A DNA stretch of 53,802 bases. Origin: Myxococcota bacterium. GTDB taxonomy: Bacteria; Myxococcota_A; UBA9160; PR03. The notes beneath the pieces are model-generated. The model was not told where the DNA came from and searched no databases. It worked only from the letters and a program-made list of their open reading frames with translations. The first letter of the stretch is position 1; each line of letters opens with the position of its first letter. Both the position numbers and the translations under genes were made by a program. The stretch covers positions 1-53,802 of the forward strand of contig JBFIML010000030.1 of assembly GCA_041611735.1 (NCBI GenBank), given 5' to 3'. Below, in pieces: positions 21,859 to 31,752 of this stretch.

Positions 21859-22290
21859 ATGGCTCAGGAAATCGAGCGGGAGACCCTGGCCCGGTACCTG
21901 GAAGAGCACAATCTCAAGCGCACCCGGCAGCGCGAGGCGATCCTCGAGGTATTCCTGAAGATCACGGGTCACATCACGAGCGACGAGCTTCACCAGCGGG
22001 TCCGGGACCGCCACCCCCACATCGGGTACACCACCGTCTACCGCACCATGAAGATCCTGTGCGATGCCGGCCTGGCCAGCGAGCGGCACTTCGACGACGG
22101 CCTCACTCGCTACGAGATCCGTCACGAGCATCACGACCATCTGGTGTGCGTGCGGTGCGGCAAGATCGTCGAGTTCGAGTGCCAGATGATCGAGTCTGCC
22201 CAGGACCGCATCGCCAGCGAGTACGGTTTCCGCCTGCTGCGCCACCGGCACGAGCTGTACGGGCACTGCTCCCGCTGCCGCGACGAGTGA
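21859..22290 (+). CDS. fur: Ferric uptake regulator family transcriptional repressor
   Basis: T.QRE.IL, HITSDEL, TTVYRTM, HEHHDHLVCVRCGKIVEF, C-terminal CSRC. Confidence 0.9.
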   Translation: MAQEIERETLARYLEEHNLKRTRQREAILEVFLKITGHITSDELHQRVRDRHPHIGYTTVYRTMKILCDAGLASERHFDDGLTRYEIRHEHHDHLVCVRCGKIVEFECQMIESAQDRIASEYGFRLLRHRHELYGHCSRCRDE

Positions 22291-24697: not shown

Positions 24698-24727
24698 TTG
24701 ACAGACCGGGCCGCGGTCGTTTAGGCT
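24698..24727 (+). promoter_or_regulatory. Sigma-70-type promoter
   Basis: Perfect -35 TTGACA (24698-24703), 18-nt spacer, -10 TAGGCT (24722-24727). Confidence 0.7.
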
Positions 24728-24733
24728 CCAATC

Positions 24734-24752
24734 GAAATTGAATTTCAATTTC
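24734..24752. promoter_or_regulatory. Fur-box-like operator
   Basis: Perfect 9-1-9 palindrome GAAATTGAA-T-TTCAATTTC, 12/19 match to GATAATGATAATCATTATC. AT-rich island at the predicted +1, with fur 2.5 kb upstream. Confidence 0.8.
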
Positions 24753-24791
24753 TGGAGCCGTGCGGCCCCGGACGTCGGAAGGCCCTCCCCC

Positions 24792-24986
24792 ATGCGCGAC
24801 GCAGCTTGCGCCCCCGCCCGCCCGCCGCGCCCTCCCGCCGCCGGCGACTGCCGCTGCCTGTGCGGCAACCTCCTGGCCCGCATCGTGCCGGGCGGTGTCG
24901 AGCTGCGCTGCCGGCGCTGCAAGCGACACGTGGTAGTTCCCTGGGAGGGTTCCGAGCCCCCGCTCGGCGCCGGAGCCCTGCCTTGA
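24792..24986 (+). CDS. Small Com-like (phage Mu) zinc-ribbon protein
   Basis: DCRCLCGNLLARIVPGGVELRCRRCKR fits the Com-type RC..C.KLLA...IKCPRC pattern; 64 aa. Confidence 0.65.
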   Translation: MRDAACAPARPPRPPAAGDCRCLCGNLLARIVPGGVELRCRRCKRHVVVPWEGSEPPLGAGALP

Positions 24987-25056
24987 ACCCCGTCCGATTC
25001 CTGAGGCCAGAGGACGCGATCCCCGAGCCCCACCGCCGCGAGGCAGGGAGGTGGCG

Positions 25057-26421
25057 ATGGCTCGGGCCACGCACGCTGGAGTCCTGGTCGGATTGCTGAT
25101 GCTCACCGGAGCGCCCGTCGGCGCGCAGTCGGATGCGGACCTCGCCCGGGAGGACCGCATCTCGGATCTCGAGCGCAAGGTCGAGATTTTGACCGAGGAG
25201 CTCGAACGGGTGCGCTCCGAGGCGGCTGTGCCCAGCGAGCCGAGCGGGTATTCGGCCCGCTACGGCTATGCGCCCGCCGCCTCGAAGGTGTACGGTCTGA
25301 CCCGCGGGCTCTCCCTCGGCGGCTACGGCGAGGGTTACTACACCAACTTCCTGCACGACGACGGAGCCGGTGCCGACCCGGATCGCACCGAGAAGGGACC
25401 CGCGCTCGCTGCCAGCGAGGCCCTGGACCAGACCGACCTGCTCCGCCTCGTCCTCTACGTGGGCTACAAGTTCAGCGAGAACATCGTCTTCAACTCGGAG
25501 ATCGAGTTCGAGCACGCCAGGACCGGCGGCGCCAGCGCGAGCGCCGGCGAGGGCAGCGTCTCGGTGGAGCTGGCCGCCCTCGACTTCTTCCTGCACGACG
25601 CCGTGAACGCCCGCGCCGGGCTTCTGCTGCTGCCCATGGGCTTCCTGAACGAGATCCACGAGCCGCCCTTCTTCCACGGCGTCCAGCGGCCGGAGGTGGA
25701 GACCCGCATCATCCCGAGCACCTGGCGGGAGAACGGGGCAGGCGTCTTCGGGCACCTGGGAGAGGACCTCGAGTACCGGGCCTACGTGGTGAACGGCTTC
25801 GCCGGCTCGCTCTTCACCGACCGGGGCGTGCGGGACGGGCGCCAGAACGGCAACCGCGCCTTCGCCGAGGACCTCGGCTTCGTGGCGCGCCTGGACTGGA
25901 CGCCGACGCCCGGATGGCTGCTCGGCGGATCCGTGTACACGGGAAAGTCCGGCCAGGACCTGGAGACCCCGGCGGGCGTCCGGCTGCCCGGCGCCCGCTT
26001 CACCTTGTGGGAGCTGCACGGCCAGTATCGCCGGGGCGGCCTCGAGACCCGGGCGCTGTTCAGCCTGGGCCGGCTTGCCAACGCCGACGACCTGAACCTC
26101 GCCCTCGCTCGTCCTGCCGACGCGCCCATCGCCGAGCGCATGCTGGGCGGCTACCTGGAGCTGGCCTACGACGTCTGGCCGTGGCTGTTCGAGTCGGAGA
26201 AGTACCTGGCGCCCTTCCTGCGCGTCGAGTACGTGGACACCCAGGACGAGGTGCCCGGCGGCTTCACCGCGAACCGCAACCGCGCCTTCTGGCTCGCCAC
26301 CACGGGACTCTCCTTCAAGCCGCATCCGAACGTGGTGCTGAAGGCCGAGTACCGCAACTTCCAGGCCCGCTCCGGCGACATCCCCGACGAGCTGAGCGTG
26401 GGCATGGGCTTTGCCTTCTAG
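25057..26421 (+). CDS. Outer-membrane beta-barrel porin (OprO/P-like)
   Basis: Signal peptide, short coiled coil, GGYGE, FNSEIEFEH, NEIHEPP.F.GV.RP, IIPSTWRE, C-terminal Phe (GFAF). Confidence 0.8.
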   Translation: MARATHAGVLVGLLMLTGAPVGAQSDADLAREDRISDLERKVEILTEELERVRSEAAVPSEPSGYSARYGYAPAASKVYGLTRGLSLGGYGEGYYTNFLHDDGAGADPDRTEKGPALAASEALDQTDLLRLVLYVGYKFSENIVFNSEIEFEHARTGGASASAGEGSVSVELAALDFFLHDAVNARAGLLLLPMGFLNEIHEPPFFHGVQRPEVETRIIPSTWRENGAGVFGHLGEDLEYRAYVVNGFAGSLFTDRGVRDGRQNGNRAFAEDLGFVARLDWTPTPGWLLGGSVYTGKSGQDLETPAGVRLPGARFTLWELHGQYRRGGLETRALFSLGRLANADDLNLALARPADAPIAERMLGGYLELAYDVWPWLFESEKYLAPFLRVEYVDTQDEVPGGFTANRNRAFWLATTGLSFKPHPNVVLKAEYRNFQARSGDIPDELSVGMGFAF

Positions 26422-26962
26422 GCGCATCGGCGCAGCGCTCCTGGCCCTGGTGCTCGCAGGCGGGCTGGCCCCGTCGGCCCGCGCCAAGGTGTTCGCGAGC
26501 CGGGAGGAGGCCTTGGCCGCCGCCTTTCCCCAGGCGGAGCGGGTGGAGGCCGAGCACCACTTCCTCAGCGAGGCGCAGAAAGCGGAGGTGGAGCGGATCG
26601 CCCGCGCGCCGCTGGACTCGCGCCTGGTGACCGTCCACGTGGGCCGCCGCGGGGACGCGGTGCTGGGCTACGCCTTCCTGGACCTCCACACGGTGCGGAC
26701 GCTCCCGGAGGCGCTGCTCGTGGTGCTCGCCCCCGATGGCTCCGTACGCAGCCTGCGGGTGCTCGCCTTCCACGAGCCGCCCGAGTACCTGCCGCCCCCG
26801 CGCTGGCTCCAGCAGTTCGAGGGCCGGTCCGCGGATGCGCGCCTGCGCCTCCAGCGCGAGGTGCACGGCATCGCGGGGTCCACGCTGTCGGCCCAGGCGG
26901 TGACCCGGGCGGTGCGGCGGGTGTTGGCTCTCTACCAGGTGGTGGTGGCGGGCGGCGAGTGA
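26411..26962 (+). CDS. Exported FMN-binding (flavinylation target) protein
   Basis: Signal peptide, LAFHEPPEY, WLQQFEG, VHGIAGSTLSAQAV (variant of the SGAT flavinylation motif). Confidence 0.8.
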   Translation: MPSRRIGAALLALVLAGGLAPSARAKVFASREEALAAAFPQAERVEAEHHFLSEAQKAEVERIARAPLDSRLVTVHVGRRGDAVLGYAFLDLHTVRTLPEALLVVLAPDGSVRSLRVLAFHEPPEYLPPPRWLQQFEGRSADARLRLQREVHGIAGSTLSAQAVTRAVRRVLALYQVVVAGGE

Positions 26963-26969
26963 GGCCAGC

Positions 26970-27503
26970 GTGCGCTTCATCGTGACCGGGGAGTGGAGCC
27001 GGAATCGGCTGCTGCAGGGGATCGTCCTGCTCTACCTCGTCTTCGTGGTGGCGCTCTGGTGGACCAACGTGGGGCTCTACTTCGGCAAGATGGGGCTCAC
27101 CTATGCGTCGGTGGTGGAGTACTACCTCGGCTCGGAGGAGCGCTTCCTCACGCCGCGCAGCGCCCAGGCCATGCTCGAGATCGCCCACTTCCATCTCTTC
27201 GCCATGGGCCTGCTCCTGCTGGTGCTGACCCACGTGATGCTCTTCGTCCCGGTCGCCAACGCCACCAAGCTCGGGCTGATCGTCGTTCCCTTCGCGGCGG
27301 CGCTGCTCGACGAGGGCGCCGGCTGGGGGGTCCGTTTCCTGCACCCGGCCTTCGCGTGGGCCAAGATCGCGGGCTTCCTGCTGCTCCAGGCGAGTCTGGC
27401 GGTGCTGGTGGGGGTGTCCCTCTGGGCCATCTTCCGGGGCAGCGCCGAGGAATATCGCAGCGGCGAGCCGGACGTCCCCGGGCAGGAGGACCCGCGCGGG
27501 TGA
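26970..27503 (+). CDS. 4-TM inner-membrane protein with His residues (possible cytochrome b-like)
   Basis: Hydrophobic segments; YYLGSEE.F..P; LEIAHFHLFAM; LTH. Sits between the FMN-binding gene and apbE. Confidence 0.7.
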   Translation: MRFIVTGEWSRNRLLQGIVLLYLVFVVALWWTNVGLYFGKMGLTYASVVEYYLGSEERFLTPRSAQAMLEIAHFHLFAMGLLLLVLTHVMLFVPVANATKLGLIVVPFAAALLDEGAGWGVRFLHPAFAWAKIAGFLLLQASLAVLVGVSLWAIFRGSAEEYRSGEPDVPGQEDPRG

Positions 27504-28561
27504 GGGCGCGGGTGCGCCTCGCGGCGCTGCTTCTCGGGGCGGGGCTGGCGCCCGTCCCGGCCCTGGCCGGGCCGGCGGCGAGTGACGGCCGCTACGTCAT
27601 GGGCACGGTGCTCGAGATCACCCTGGCCGACGCGCCGGATGCGAGCGCGGCCCGCCGCACCCTCGACGTGGTCTTCGCCCGGGCCTCGCGTCTCGACGCC
27701 CTCTTGAGCCGCCAGCGCCCCGACAGCGCTCTGGCCCGGCTCAACCGCCACGCGGGCGCCGGACCCCAGGCGGTCGATCCGCACCTGGCGCGCCTGCTGG
27801 CCGAGTCGATCGCGTGGTCGCGGGCCACGGCCGGGAGCTTCGACGTGACCGTGGGGCCGCTGGTTCGGCTATGGGAGGAGGCCGCCCGCCGCGGCGCGCC
27901 GCCGACGCCGGCGGAGCTGGCCGGGGCCCGGGCGCTGGTCGGGGCGGACGGGCTCGACGCGGCCCCGCCGCGCCGGGCCGAGATCCGCCGGCCCGGGGCC
28001 TGCGTGGACCTGGGCGGGATCGCCAAGGGCTATGCCCTCGATCGCCTGGCCGAGCAGCTGCGGGCGGCGGGCCACGGGCGGGCGCTGCTCTCCTTCGGCC
28101 AGAGCAGCGTGTGGGCGCTCGGGGCGCCGCCCGACGCCGAGGGCTGGCGCCTGCTCGTGCGCGATGGTGCCGACGGCTACGCGGGCCTGGTGACCCTGCG
28201 CGACCAGGCGCTGGCGGTCTCCGGCAGCCTCGGCCAGTGGAGCGAGATCGCGGGACGTCGCTACGGACACGTGATCGATCCACGCACCGGGCTCCCGCTC
28301 GTGCGGCGTGCCCAGGCGGTGGTGGTCGCCCCCCGCGCGTCCGGAGCGGAGGCGCTGGCCAAGGCGCTGCTCATCCTGCCCGCCGCGGAGGCGCTCGGTC
28401 TGCTGGAGGCGCAGCCCGGCGTGGAGGCGCTTCTGCTCGCCGAGGGGCGCCGCTGGGAGACCTCCGGCTGGCGCGCCGCTACGCGCTTCGAGGCCGTGGC
28501 CGCGCCGCCGCCTCAAGCCCCCTCTTCCACCCAGGCCTCGAGATCCTCCGGGAGCTCGTAG
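27500..28561 (+). CDS. apbE: FAD:protein FMN transferase
   Basis: MGTVLEI, FDVTVGPLV.LW, DLGGIAKGYALD, GHVIDPRTG.P. Confidence 0.9.
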   Translation: MRARVRLAALLLGAGLAPVPALAGPAASDGRYVMGTVLEITLADAPDASAARRTLDVVFARASRLDALLSRQRPDSALARLNRHAGAGPQAVDPHLARLLAESIAWSRATAGSFDVTVGPLVRLWEEAARRGAPPTPAELAGARALVGADGLDAAPPRRAEIRRPGACVDLGGIAKGYALDRLAEQLRAAGHGRALLSFGQSSVWALGAPPDAEGWRLLVRDGADGYAGLVTLRDQALAVSGSLGQWSEIAGRRYGHVIDPRTGLPLVRRAQAVVVAPRASGAEALAKALLILPAAEALGLLEAQPGVEALLLAEGRRWETSGWRAATRFEAVAAPPPQAPSSTQASRSSGSS

Positions 28562-29601
28562 TGGTCGTCGGCGATGCGGCCTGCGAGCGCGCCCAGATTC
28601 GCCTGGAACATCTCATCGAAGTGCGCCTCGATGCGTGGGCTGAAGAGCCCGATGGCGCGCAGCGTCGGGATCACGAAGCCGCGCACGGGACCGCGGCGAC
28701 CTCCGGTGCGCTGGAGCTCGGCGAAGATCACGTCCCGTTCGCCCTGGATCTTCTGGATCGCCTCCTGGACGTCGATCCCTGCCAGGCTCCAGATCTCGAG
28801 CACGCTGTCGCGCATCGAGACGCCGCCCCGCGAGTCCACCAGCTTGCGCGCGGATTCGAAGGCGAAGTCCTCGATCTCGGCGCGCTTGGCGTCCGAGACC
28901 GTTGGCACCACGGCCGAGAGGTACTTGATGCCGTATCCGGTGTGGCGCGCTTCGTCGCGCGAGACCAGGGTGAGGAGGTCCCGGAGCAGCGGCTCGTCGC
29001 TCTGATTGCGCATGTCCCGGAAGCTGTAGAGGGCGATCCCCTCGGTCACGACCTGCATGCCCACGGCCTTGAGCATCCAGTCGTCGGTGGCGAGGACCGC
29101 GTCCAGCAGGCCCTTCAGCGCCGGCGCGATCGGATGCACCTCGTCGAGCTTGCGGATGTAGGCCGCGAAGACCTCCACGTGACGCGCCTCGTCGAGGGTC
29201 TGGGTCGAGGCGTAGTACTTGGCGTCCATGTGCGGCACGGCGTTCACGAGCTGGGCCGCCACCATGAGCGCCCCCTGCTCGCCGTGCAGGAAGTTCGAGA
29301 GCAGGAAGGCGGCGCTACGTCGCGAGACCTCCCAGCGCGTCTCCGCGGGGAGCGAGCTCCAGAAGCGCGTCTTCTGGATCGGGAGGCCGCCCACCGAGAA
29401 GGTGCGCGAGAAGCCCTCGCGGTCGATCTCGCGGGTCCAGTCGAGGTCGCGCAGCGCGATCCACTGCCGCTCCAGGGCGTTGGCGTACAGGGTGCGGAGC
29501 TCGTCGATCTCGGGCTCGTAGTTCCAGTTGTAGACCGCATTGAGCGCGGCCCGCACGGAGTCGTTGGGGACGGGGTGCTTCGGAGAGAGTTCGGTCGCCA
29601 A
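28513..29601 (-). CDS. Ferritin-like di-iron domain protein
   Basis: FLHGEQGAL, DEARHVE, EGIAL, DEARH di-iron ligand pattern. Confidence 0.85.
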   Translation of the reverse strand: MATELSPKHPVPNDSVRAALNAVYNWNYEPEIDELRTLYANALERQWIALRDLDWTREIDREGFSRTFSVGGLPIQKTRFWSSLPAETRWEVSRRSAAFLLSNFLHGEQGALMVAAQLVNAVPHMDAKYYASTQTLDEARHVEVFAAYIRKLDEVHPIAPALKGLLDAVLATDDWMLKAVGMQVVTEGIALYSFRDMRNQSDEPLLRDLLTLVSRDEARHTGYGIKYLSAVVPTVSDAKRAEIEDFAFESARKLVDSRGGVSMRDSVLEIWSLAGIDVQEAIQKIQGERDVIFAELQRTGGRRGPVRGFVIPTLRAIGLFSPRIEAHFDEMFQANLGALAGRIADDHYELPEDLEAWVEEGA

Positions 29602-29656
29602 GTGGGGGTCTCCTCGGGCGCAACCCGGCCAGTGTATCCGAGATCGGGCGAGGCCC

Positions 29657-30289
29657 TCAGTCCTCCAGTACGAGGGCCACGGGAAGCTCGTCGCGGTCCA
29701 CGGCGGGCGGCGGGTGGTGGGCGGCGAGCATGGCGCCGCAGCGCCGCACCGCGGCCTCCAGACCGTCGGCGGGTCGCCCCTCCCGGAGCCCCGCCACGGC
29801 CAGGCGCACGATCTCCTCCCAGCTCTCGCCCGCCACCAGCGCGCGGTCGATGCCTTCGTCGGCGAGCACCACGACCCGGCGCTCGAGCAGCGTCACGAAG
29901 ACCAGGATCCCGGTCCGATGCGCGGTGCGCGCGAGTCCGTGCTCGGCGAAGGCGCGCCGGGCGCGTTCGGCCACGCGCTCCCCCACCAGCGCGGCCGGCA
30001 GGAGCCCGCGTCGCACCCGCTCCAGGCGCGCCAGCCCGTGGCCCGTCGCGAGCGCGCCGGCCTGGGCCGCCAGGTAGACCCAGGCGGGGAGCGGCGGAGC
30101 GAACAGCCAGAGTCCGACGAAGGCCAGGGCGGCCAGTGCCACCCCGAGGCGCCAGCCGACGCTTCCGTACTCGTCGCAGGCGTGCACCACCACCACGACG
30201 ATCTCGCCCGCGGTGTCGCGCTCGGCTTCGAGCACCGCACGCTCGATGCGCAGGCGGTCGGCGGGGTCGAGGAGTCGGGAGGGTCGCAC
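29657..30289 (-). CDS. TPM domain membrane protein
   Basis: I..AV..AE..TAGEIVVVV, T..RTGILVFV...ERRVVVLAD.GI, DELP. Part of the lemA operon. Confidence 0.88.
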   Translation of the reverse strand: MRPSRLLDPADRLRIERAVLEAERDTAGEIVVVVVHACDEYGSVGWRLGVALAALAFVGLWLFAPPLPAWVYLAAQAGALATGHGLARLERVRRGLLPAALVGERVAERARRAFAEHGLARTAHRTGILVFVTLLERRVVVLADEGIDRALVAGESWEEIVRLAVAGLREGRPADGLEAAVRRCGAMLAAHHPPPAVDRDELPVALVLED

Positions 30290-30292
30290 CGG

Positions 30293-31171
30293 CTACCAGC
30301 GTCCCGAGGCGCCGCCGCCCCCGAAGCCGCCCCCGCCGCCCCCGAAGCCGCCGCCTCCTCCGCTCCAGCCGCCGTCCCAGCCGGAGCCCGATCGCCCGAG
30401 CCCGCGCCGCAGCGTCCCCGGCGAGGTGGCGAACCAGCCCACCAGGGCGCCCAGGGCGAAGGCGACCCCTGCCCACGCCAGCACGCGCAGCACGACGTAG
30501 GTGACCACGCCGCTCACCGCGCCCGCCGCCACGGCGCCCTGGACCCGACGCCGGCGGAAGGGGGCTGCGACCAGGAAGGCGAGCACCGACGTCCAGACCA
30601 CCAGGGTGGCCGGGTCCGCGGATGGCCCTTCATCCGCCCGGGGCCGCCGCGTCGCGGGGATCCGCTCGCCCCGGGCGGCCTTCATGAGTGCATCCACTCC
30701 GGCCTCGATCCCGCCCGCCAGGTCGCCGGAACGGAAGTGCGAGAACATCACGTCCTCGAGCACGCGCTTCGCGATGGCGTCGGGGACCACCCCTTCGAGG
30801 CCGTAGCCCACCTCGATGCGCGCCTGCCGGTCGTCGGGAGCCACCACGACCACGATCCCATTGTCGAGCCCCGCGTGGCCGATGCCCCAGGTCTCGGCCA
30901 CGCGCAGGGCGAACTCCTCGATGGGCTCGCCGGCCAGGGTCGGCACGGTGAGCACCACGATCTGGTGGGTGGTCTCGGCTTCGAACTGCTCGAGGCGTCG
31001 TTCGAGGGCCGCGGCGCGCGCGGGCGCGAGGACGCCGGCGGTGTCGTTGACGCGCCCCTCGAGGCTCGGGACTTCGAGGGTGGCCGGCGCCGGGATCGCG
31101 ACCCCGAGCGCGGCGAGTCCCAGGGCGGCAGCCAGCGCCGCCCGAGTGCCCGCCCAGCGGCGGGTGCTCAG
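30293..31171 (-). CDS. TPM domain protein (YgcG-like) with Gly-rich tail
   Basis: VPSLEGRVNDTAGVL, QIVVLTVPTL, DNGIV, RIEVGYGLEG, GGGFGGGGASGRW. Homology and signal peptide extend upstream to a CTG at 31171. Confidence 0.85.
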   Translation of the reverse strand: MSTRRWAGTRAALAAALGLAALGVAIPAPATLEVPSLEGRVNDTAGVLAPARAAALERRLEQFEAETTHQIVVLTVPTLAGEPIEEFALRVAETWGIGHAGLDNGIVVVVAPDDRQARIEVGYGLEGVVPDAIAKRVLEDVMFSHFRSGDLAGGIEAGVDALMKAARGERIPATRRPRADEGPSADPATLVVWTSVLAFLVAAPFRRRRVQGAVAAGAVSGVVTYVVLRVLAWAGVAFALGALVGWFATSPGTLRRGLGRSGSGWDGGWSGGGGGFGGGGGGFGGGGASGRW

Positions 31172-31752
31172 AATCGCACCTCCGGGGGCTCCTCGGTGCC
31201 CGGCCGGGCCTCGAAGCCGGGCCGGACCTCGGCGCCCAGCAGGAAGCGAGCGGTCAGGTTGGTGGGGAAGTAGCGCACCAGCTTGTTGTACTCCTCCACG
31301 GCCTCGATGTAGCGCTTGCGCGCCACGGCGATGCGGTTCTCGGTGCCCTCGAGCTGCGCCTGGAGATCCCGGAACGACTGGGTGGCGGAGAGCTGTGGGT
31401 ACTGCTCGACAACCACGAGCAGCCGGCCGAGGGCGCGGGAGAGCTCGCCCTGGGCGGCCTCGAACTTTGCGAAGGCCTCGGGGTCGTCCAGGAGCTCGGG
31501 CCCGGCCTGGATGCCCGTGGCCCGCGCCCGGGCCTGCACCACCGCCTCCAGGGTCTCGCGCTCGAAGTCCGCGGCGCCCTTCACCGTCGCCACGAGGTTG
31601 GGCACGAGGTCCGCCCGGCGCTGGTACTGGTTCCCGACCTCGGCCCAGGCGGCCTTCACCCGCTCGTCGGCGCCTTGGATGCGGTTGTAGCCGCAGCCGG
31701 CAGCGCCGAGGCAGGCCACCAGCAGGGCCGCGAGGATCCTGGCTCTCGTCAC
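31168..31752 (-). CDS. lemA: LemA family protein
   Basis: GCGYN, YQRRADLVPNLV.TVKG, E.YPQL, LEGTENRIAVARKRY. Confidence 0.93.
   Translation of the reverse strand: MTRARILAALLVACLGAAGCGYNRIQGADERVKAAWAEVGNQYQRRADLVPNLVATVKGAADFERETLEAVVQARARATGIQAGPELLDDPEAFAKFEAAQGELSRALGRLLVVVEQYPQLSATQSFRDLQAQLEGTENRIAVARKRYIEAVEEYNKLVRYFPTNLTARFLLGAEVRPGFEARPGTEEPPEVRF

Follow-up and report, generated by a model that had tools for sequence, protein, structure and literature searches.

A Com-like zinc-ribbon gene and a conserved RNA site as a putative second layer on Fur-controlled iron operons

A 64-aa Cys4 gene behind a Fur-type box

The window analyzed here is a stretch of 53,802 nucleotides from a Myxococcota bacterium (contig JBFIML010000030.1 of assembly GCA_041611735.1), with a G+C content of 73% and coding frames with about 90% G+C at the third codon position (GC3). 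It contains a cassette of two parts, a small gene for a zinc-ribbon protein resembling Com of phage Mu and a short conserved RNA site directly downstream, which together lie between a Fur-type box and a putative iron-uptake operon. The gene is under protein-level selection, and gene and site co-occur across several phyla, suggesting that the protein may act on the RNA as a second layer of control. The features of this leader are as follows.

24698..24727, plus strand: candidate sigma-70-type promoter (TTGACA at 24698-24703, 18-nt spacer, TAGGCT at 24722-24727)
24734..24752, strand not applicable: 19-bp 9-1-9 palindrome GAAATTGAA-T-TTCAATTTC, a Fur-box-like operator at about +1 (sequence reading)
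24792..24986, plus strand: small gene, 64 aa, Com-like Cys4 zinc ribbon (ATG open reading frame, ORF; translation ..CRCLCGNLLAR..VELRCRRCKR..)
24849-24941, plus strand: zinc-ribbon core, residues 20-50 (Cys22, Cys24, Cys40 and Cys43 invariant)
24987-25056, plus strand: 70-nt spacer between the small gene and the porin gene (sequence reading)
25003..25031, plus strand: conserved RNA site, with half-site 1 GGCCAGAGG at 25005-25013 and half-site 2 CCCCGAGCCCC at 25021-25031
25022..25066, plus strand: predicted helix, 25022-25034 pairing with 25050-25054 and 25059-25066 (minimum free energy and centroid folds)
25030-25054, plus strand: hairpin CCACC(25030-34)-GCC-GCGA-GGC-aggga-GGTGG(25050-54) (sequence reading)
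25047-25052, plus strand: Shine-Dalgarno (SD) sequence GGGAGG (sequence reading)
25057..26421, plus strand: porin-like outer-membrane protein, first gene after the leader (Pfam BBP2, E 1.6e-4, below cut-off)

A preliminary description of this DNA had read most of these elements from the letters. The GAG/CC words, the 70-nt spacer and the letters of the hairpin are all present, and so are the TTGACA and TAGGCT hexamers, though a promoter scan of the window called nothing and the -10 hexamer agrees with the consensus at 3 of 6 positions. TTGACA at a comparable spacing 5' of an AT-rich box was also found in the leaders of relatives. The porin start is the ATG at 25057, not 25058.

The 64-aa ORF is a real gene under protein-level purifying selection, because 71% of the differing codons are synonymous in frame compared with 7-8% in the two shifted frames (70 loci), which confirms the ORF with CRCLCGNLLAR..VELRCRRCKR that had been proposed. 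Pairwise differences per site in the ungapped 25-codon core of the same loci are 0.17, 0.12 and 0.53 at codon positions 1, 2 and 3, and the G+C content by codon position within 24820-24910 follows the coding pattern of this genome. Fifteen residues are invariant in 38 sequences (R21, C22, C24, G25, L27, L28, A29, V36, E37, C40, R41, R42, C43, K44 and R45), whereas C20, the first cysteine of 'CRC', is not. The second knuckle is strongly basic, with CRRCKR invariant. An AlphaFold2 (AF2) model has a three-stranded core with a predicted local distance difference test (pLDDT) score of 81-91 for residues 20-50 and disordered tails (69.6 for the whole model).

Homologues with E ≤2e-10 were found in 14 of the 40 relatives' genomes, the remaining 26 giving chance-level matches only. 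A scan of one genome per species (185,579 species) returned a small-gene homologue in 189 stretches, of which 80 loci were kept; the cross-phyla counts below refer to these 80. By their record titles, the scan loci belong to Myxococcota, Candidatus Binatia, Methylomirabilota/Rokubacteria and Thermodesulfobacteriota. The carriers in Myxococcota include Myxococcus, Corallococcus, Pyxidicoccus, Sorangium, Vulgatibacter and Haliangium, and cultured carriers are Corallococcus coralloides, Myxococcus dinghuensis and Pyxidicoccus fallax.

The family profile aligned with the Com family profile with an hhalign probability of 95.7% (E 1e-8, 34 columns). In this alignment, the four cysteines invariant in the 38 sequences fall on the four cysteines of Com, with a one-residue gap in the first knuckle. 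The same family profile scored 0.06% against HemP as a control. A BLASTP comparison with Mu Com, taken from the annotated Mu record, gave 11/27 identities (41%, pairwise E 6e-6), the top PHROG match was gpCom (PHROG 13819, E 0.0028), and the JGI pipeline had labeled 11 of 120 homologues among the matches listed as 'phage FluMu protein Com'. A PDB sequence search with the peptide returned only the zinc ribbon of ribosomal uS14 (E 0.096), and a Foldseek search of the AF2 model against the PDB gave 0 matches at E ≤0.001, with generic zinc ribbons only. These profile comparisons suggest that the small protein is a distant relative of Com, outside the Pfam family as now drawn. As the preliminary description had stated, there are no phage genes nearby, none being found by Pfam among the 16 ORFs scanned around the locus.

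The palindrome is unique in the window, had 0 matches in 100 window shuffles at up to 3 mismatches, and agrees with the Escherichia coli Fur consensus at 12 of 19 positions. A Fur-type box of at least 12/19 was found within 300 nt upstream of the small gene in 52 of the 71 testable loci, compared with 115 of 2107 control windows; in terminator-class loci, such a box is mostly absent. All marks of a Fur box were thus found, i.e., a 19-bp 9-1-9 repeat, in the promoter of an iron gene, conserved in orthologous leaders. Both the perfect palindrome at +1 and the Fur box suggested earlier hold up, the former above chance by conservation and shuffles and the latter as a predicted box. We infer that Fur would act at the window palindrome.

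The conserved RNA site and its co-occurrence with the gene

With the leaders of relatives aligned by eye, the GAG/CC words proved to be the conserved part of the spacer. The consensus of the site is GGCC(A/C)G(A/C)GG(Y)C, 3-12 variable bases and CCC(A/C)G(A/C)GCC, and site matches were counted by a regular expression built from it. In the window's order, 12 of 12 loci have a match no more than 450 nt after the gene; across phyla, 62 of the 80 loci have one within 400 nt. Elsewhere in the 827 kb, the expression matched 29 times on the plus strand and 23 times on the minus strand, and several of the plus-strand matches are true extra copies. The site is single-copy in its own genome. The frame of the small ORF runs through the site in some loci and stops before it in others; because the frame crosses the site only in some loci, the conservation of the site is at the nucleotide level.

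The site resembles the published target of Com. [quoted passage not shown] The study further reports that Com binding protects the GA dinucleotide and that the natural target of Com adjoins the translation-inhibition structure of mom, with which it overlaps in part (PMC6483171). Half-site 2 reads CC-CC-GAG-CC-CC, i.e., CC(N)2GAG(N)2CC, which contains both motif forms given there (PMC6483171), so the repeated GAG-N-CC words pointed out in the preliminary description are both conserved and close to a Com motif. As for the Com target, the motif in the window stands beside a structure that would hide the start codon, the helix itself being not above chance. By eye, the few com loci compared (Mu, phage Chuche, a Mu-like insert) are laid out like the window, each with a (C/A)GAGC word, a CCCAC-type 5' arm, an SD sequence and a GUGG-type 3' arm.

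A further word, CCGAGCCCC, lies within 24952-24967 at the 3' end of the small ORF and makes an inverted repeat together with GCTCGG (6-bp stem, CCCC loop); this word may be a third one of the Com type or due to chance. A mini-hairpin GGCC-NNN-GGYC in half-site 1 was considered and rejected, as it showed no covariation and is broken in GACC/GACC variants. A genome-wide pattern count was dropped as a co-occurrence test in these GC-rich genomes, since at 2 mismatches the own genome gave 1 true match against 4 forward matches and 1 reverse match of the backwards control.

Searches of Rfam 15, riboswitches included, returned no relevant match for the window leader (E ≤10), for 12 loci (gathering scores) or for a terminator-type leader (E ≤10). 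One match to Parecho_CRE (E 0.0029), within the porin gene but on the minus strand, was taken as chance. Readings of the site as an iron-responsive element (IRE) bound by aconitase or as a CsrA-like site were set aside, as there is no CAGUG-type loop hairpin and no conserved GGA.

The distribution of gene and site was followed with a covariance model, R1, consisting of the site plus the terminator described below. In five genomes, each with a single Com-like gene, R1 found 13 elements, 2-3 per genome. Of the 13, 12 share the contig of the gene, and some stand 1-8 kb from it, before further genes of the cluster. A set of 61 relatives of one of these five genomes divides into 17 with both, 2 with the RNA only, 2 with the protein only and 40 with neither. 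The RNA-only genomes have weak matches (E 9e-4, and 1e-4 at a contig end), and one of the protein-only matches is weak. In genomes with both, the element is usually less than 250 nt after the gene. One unpublished genome (G043, locus L060) contributes 2 of the 23 rows of alignment A4, 3 of the 13 R1 elements and 1 of the 17 genomes with both.

In the window's order, the porin gene occurs in 26 of the 40 relatives, including all 14 with the small gene, and the site was present in all 11 fetched loci of those 14. For the 12 porin-bearing relatives without the small gene, the fetched upstream regions (one of 242 nt to the contig end) had neither a Cys-knuckle ORF nor a leader site, and 9 of the 12 porin leaders have a Fur-type box of at least 12/19. 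One of these relatives, G003 (L124, G003:C30:2800-3700, reverse strand), has the most similar porin (72%) and the letter-identical 19-bp palindrome, followed by AGGAGG and the porin ATG, with no small gene and no RNA site. As judged by this comparison, the cassette is evidently optional, inserted after the Fur box and ahead of the operon, because G003 has the identical box directly before the porin gene and lacks the cassette. Gene and site are likewise, by the genomes compared, evidently gained and lost together. Cassette-free relatives such as G003 offer a natural comparison.

The position of the small ORF also allows an explanation purely in cis, in which its translation opens the leader by coupling or attenuation, the spacer words serve folding and the peptide does not bind RNA. 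This would agree with the stop codon 18 nt before the site in the window, and with several loci in which the ORF continues across the site into the porin start, among them L002, L003, L006 and L011 and loci with stop offsets of 129-168. The distance from stop to site nevertheless varies from overlap to more than 200 nt, extra copies of the site and terminator, none next to a small ORF, stand 1-5 kb away or on another contig, and selection on the amino acids of the 25-residue core is strong across phyla, unlike in leader peptides. Together with the profile relation to an RNA-binding protein, this makes a purely cis role very unlikely in our view.

A different protein, a small RNA or a ligand might also read the site, with the Cys4 peptide having a non-regulatory role such as rubredoxin-like iron binding or electron transfer. 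Cys4 knuckles can bind iron, the window operon is linked to flavin and redox chemistry, and the structure searches do not tell a nucleic-acid-binding zinc ribbon from a redox one here. The site, for its part, lacks the length and structure of known ligand-sensing RNAs and has no Rfam match. It also fits the Com motif (PMC6483171). Gene and site are gained and lost together, the invariant CRRCKR makes the second knuckle strongly basic, and the gene is also found at non-redox operons such as those of ExbBD and TonB receptors. We consider a separate reader quite unlikely, and the small protein remains the favored partner of the site.

RNA platforms and operons behind the cassette

In AT-richer lineages, the 5' arm of a canonical intrinsic terminator, with its trailing U-run, opens with AGAGCCC of half-site 2 as its first 7 nt. 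Such an overlap was found in 20 of the 94 regular-expression instances, or 23 with a wider T-run rule, and the terminator stems diverge beyond those 7 nt. RNAalifold drew the terminator helix with 3 pairs changing on both sides; of the covariation looked for in the spacer, it is this helix that shows it, whereas the mini-hairpin shows none. In these other lineages, the read-out, as judged from the leaders, is transcription termination and not translation. A terminator search of the window leader found none, which places the window outside the attenuator class.

Two further small ORFs were observed after such elements. One, with the conserved start ..(K/R)RW(E/D)I....GTVHLHY.., lies directly after site-terminator elements in Binatia-type loci and is followed by ExbB/ExbD (L117:89-703 on the minus strand, L116:1587-1835 and L107:about 1572-1790; also L046, L060, L079 and L092). 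The copy at L079:6154-6435 matched no Pfam family; the ORF may encode another small regulator or a component of the TonB system. The other, with the conserved start ..HY(S/V)TVFSN(Q)xGI(A/T)ARVCPRG.. and no known family, follows other site-terminator copies (L110:1579-1791, L040 about 7420, L041 about 7375 and L028 about 7490).

In the window, half-site 2 is predicted to pair with the start region of the porin gene. The helix covers the 3' part of the SD sequence, the G of the AUG and codons 2-3, and contains the hairpin 25030-25054 as its inner part. Of 38 porin starts, 9 have a start region complementary to half-site 2 over at least 6 contiguous nt, compared with 3 of 71 control starts, with a Fisher p of 0.003 that overstates the difference as the loci are related; the 8 nt in the window are the longest among the 38 porin-type loci. 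Many porin genes begin ATG-GCT-CGA/G or follow CTCG, complementary to CGAGCC of the site, and the codons GCT and CGA end in T and A despite the third-position G+C of about 90%. At L050, CGCGCC in the site is accompanied by GGCGCG before the start, while L023 has no compensation. Occlusion of the start site is thus plausible for the GC-rich class as modeled. The translational gating proposed earlier agrees with this predicted pairing in the window but not with the other lineages, which use terminators.

The neighboring genes in the window are listed below.

21859..22290, plus strand: Fur-family regulator gene, 143 aa (Pfam FUR, E 7.6e-34), 2.5 kb upstream of the leader
26411-26962, plus strand: FMN-binding protein (Pfam FMN_bind, E 5.2e-5)
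26970-27503, plus strand: 177-aa membrane protein (GC3 frame support; no family match in Pfam or NCBIfam)
about 27500-28561, plus strand: ApbE flavin transferase (Pfam ApbE, E 3.7e-61)

The best NCBIfam matches of the 143-aa Fur-family protein are ferric uptake regulators, below the equivalog cut-offs, and a Fur homologue (at least 67% identity) is directly upstream of the small gene in 18 of the 80 loci. The listed 522-aa ApbE ORF (26993-28561) shares part of its length with the 177-aa gene, which is read in another frame. Because GC3 favors the frame of the 177-aa gene and the ApbE domain begins at residue 203 of the long ORF, we place the true ApbE start near 27500. At L062, the gene in the position of the 177-aa protein matches PepSY_TM. 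The set of porin, FMN-binding protein, 177-aa protein and ApbE is a conserved operon linked to Fur and looks like a periplasmic flavin-dependent system for iron (ferric) reduction and uptake. Upstream of the locus, a Yip1 protein is encoded on the opposite strand, and convergent to the operon on the minus strand (28513-31752) are genes for an AurF-like di-iron oxygenase (28513-29601), a TPM-domain protein (29657-30289) and LemA (31168-31752).

The gene after the small gene encodes a porin homologue in 11 of 11 loci from relatives, and an operon of porin (at least 40% identity), FMN_bind, membrane protein and ApbE lies downstream in 37 of the 80 loci, mostly in the same gene order. By Pfam, the other 43 loci have TonB-dependent receptors with HmuY and HemS/ChuX, ExbB/ExbD/TonB, FeoB/FeoC, FTR1 with cytochrome c, Cupredoxin_1 (EfeO-like), imelysin with a di-haem oxidoreductase, multicopper oxidase, a siderophore-type decarboxylase with an N-monooxygenase (two site copies), divergent FMN_bind/ApbE sets or an ABC ATPase. 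About 12 of these 43 loci gave no family match, and three contigs end too early. The conserved synteny with iron operons that the preliminary description called for was thus observed, both in the relatives and in the many classes of iron importer among the 80 loci.

Proposed mechanism and comparison with known systems

Based on these observations, we propose two layers of control. In the first, Fur would bind the palindrome at about +1 and block transcription when iron is plentiful. In the second, the first gene of the transcript would give the 64-aa Cys4 zinc-ribbon protein of the Com kind, which would bind the single-stranded site just downstream (GGCCAGAGG ... CCCCGAGCCCC). Half-site 2 would double as the 5' foot of a helix, pairing with the SD sequence and start codon here and forming the arm of an intrinsic terminator in AT-richer lineages. 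The bound protein would keep this foot single-stranded, allowing translation of the porin-FMN-ApbE operon in the window and read-through elsewhere. We regard a Com-type RNA-binding activator or antiterminator acting as a second layer on a Fur-controlled iron operon as probable, though with a good deal of room for doubt. Both the binding of the protein to the site and activation rather than repression are what we infer from sequence. The core of the earlier interpretation, a Com-like protein and an RNA site as a second layer, is supported, and its specific hairpin is not. The mechanism would also be wider than first proposed, with termination as well as translation and several sites per gene.

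Several results weigh against this proposal. For the protein, Pfam PF10122 (Zn_ribbon_Com) is carried by all 21 close Mu Com homologues but was not matched by the window peptide even at E 10, nor by any of the 38 family members at E ≤1; NCBIfam has no family for the peptide, and its first knuckle is CxC, not the CxxC of Com. The Com likeness suggested earlier is thus found by profile comparison and not by membership of the Pfam family. For the site, 18 of the 80 loci have no match to the regular expression beside the gene, the spacing CC-N1-GAG of half-site 1 is outside the published 2-3, and the GGCC/GGUY mini-hairpin drawn by RNAalifold has no compensatory change. CC(N)2-3GAG was found in 51 of 59 site instances compared with 9.6% of background windows, a fit that is partly built into the regular expression. 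The counts among the 61 genomes are non-independent, as the genomes are kin and at least 3 of them supplied R1 sequences. Furthermore, the operon works without the cassette in the 12 cassette-free relatives. A search of sequencing runs returned no RNA run containing the locus.

The start-region helix is subject to similar reservations. The 102-nt leader folds with -39.3 kcal/mol (z +0.53; 135 of 200 shuffles at least as stable), and the 37-nt piece with the inner helix has a z of -0.51. For the -14..+3 region, the predicted pairing of 38 porin starts (0.625) is no different from that of 71 control starts (0.61, p=0.16). The last 6 nt of the site recur downstream as an exact reverse complement in 13 of 57 loci compared with a 7.2% background, a register that is too strict, and the duplex energy against the 120 nt downstream is modest, with a median percentile of 0.24 and 18 of 57 under 0.10. 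The ribosome-binding-site-sequestering hairpin that had been put forward as a special structure consequently finds no support, either in its thermodynamics or in the pairing of porin starts.

The same protein and RNA might also act with the opposite sign, the protein stabilizing the terminator or the start-occluding helix, or blocking the ribosome, so that negative feedback caps iron import after Fur derepression. All evidence that couples gene and site is compatible with either sign, and limiting iron uptake in this way would make physiological sense. Since the porin of relatives is expressed directly from the Fur box with no activator, the added cassette could equally be a brake. On the other side, the site overlaps the 5' arm of the terminator, where single-stranded binding would compete with the stem, and no alternative antiterminator structure for a repressor to displace was seen. 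Com, the closest relative, is an activator (PMC6483171). We consider repression unlikely and retain activation.

As an extension of the activator model, the Cys4 site might sense occupancy by Fe(II) versus Zn or the oxidation of its thiolates, giving an iron- or redox-responsive switch that tunes import after Fur through termination or translation, and the cellular family might be the stock from which Mu-like phages took Com. This is speculative and, to us, doubtful; if true, it would be a bacterial counterpart of the iron regulatory protein/IRE idea.

Bacterial iron uptake is taught as repression by Fur (or DtxR/Irr) plus small RNAs. To our knowledge, the only small-protein layer so far described is HemP/HmuP in proteobacteria. 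The cassette would be a different small protein with its own RNA site, on nearly every class of iron importer and with two read-outs, and would extend to cellular physiology the Com mechanism, known from one phage gene. It would also provide a compact protein-RNA pair of about 35 residues and about 30 nt. A literature search turned up no paper that places a Com-like protein at iron operons, most subscription journals being outside the search, in keeping with the earlier statement that no description was known.

In classical Fur-box repression, an AT-rich 19-bp 9-1-9 palindrome overlaps the promoter or +1 of an iron-uptake operon, with a Fur-family gene near. The window box is ordinary in these respects, and the novelty is the cassette placed between box and operon. 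HutP and the BglG/LicT/SacY proteins bind RNA that overlaps the foot of a leader terminator and decide read-through. The logic would be the same here, and HutP likewise reads short direct repeats. Unlike the cassette protein, these proteins have unrelated folds and their systems have known ligands, whereas here a 64-aa zinc ribbon is encoded in the same leader and the same site would serve a translational platform too.

HemP/HmuP/ChuP are small proteins encoded by the first gene of Fur-regulated haem or iron operons, and PMC9131926 proposes that they act post-transcriptionally on short C/G-rich repeats (HmuP-responsive elements, HPRE) in the 5' untranslated regions of receptor genes, including genes elsewhere. 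An operon-heading small protein under Fur, together with short elements in 5' untranslated regions, is shared with the cassette (PMC9131926). The proteins themselves are unrelated (hhalign 0.06%, no Pfam hemP match), HemP having no cysteines, and membership of HemP/HmuP (PF10636) was rejected for the window peptide on these grounds. HemP genes were found in 6 of 41 relatives, with the site after 0 of the 6. Two HPRE examples quoted in PMC9131926 are GCCAGCC-type repeats resembling the GGCCAG word of half-site 1, a likeness that may be convergence or chance.

The Com-mom pair of phage Mu has in common with the cassette a small (about 60 aa) Cys4 zinc-finger protein encoded directly upstream of the controlled gene, sometimes overlapping it, protein families related at the profile level and a target RNA of the form CC(N)2-3GAG / GAG(N)2CC adjoining a helix with the SD sequence and start (PMC6483171). 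Unlike in the phage, the window gene is chromosomal without phage genes near and precedes an iron-uptake operon (porin, FMN_bind, ApbE) instead of a mom-type DNA-modification gene, the peptide with its CxC knuckle fails PF10122, and the site is a bipartite single-stranded stretch, not a hairpin loop. In many cassette lineages, moreover, the read-out appears to be an intrinsic terminator, and one gene would serve 2-3 sites. The closest relative of the cassette is Com-mom, and its closest functional analogue is HemP/HmuP/ChuP with HPRE (PMC9131926).

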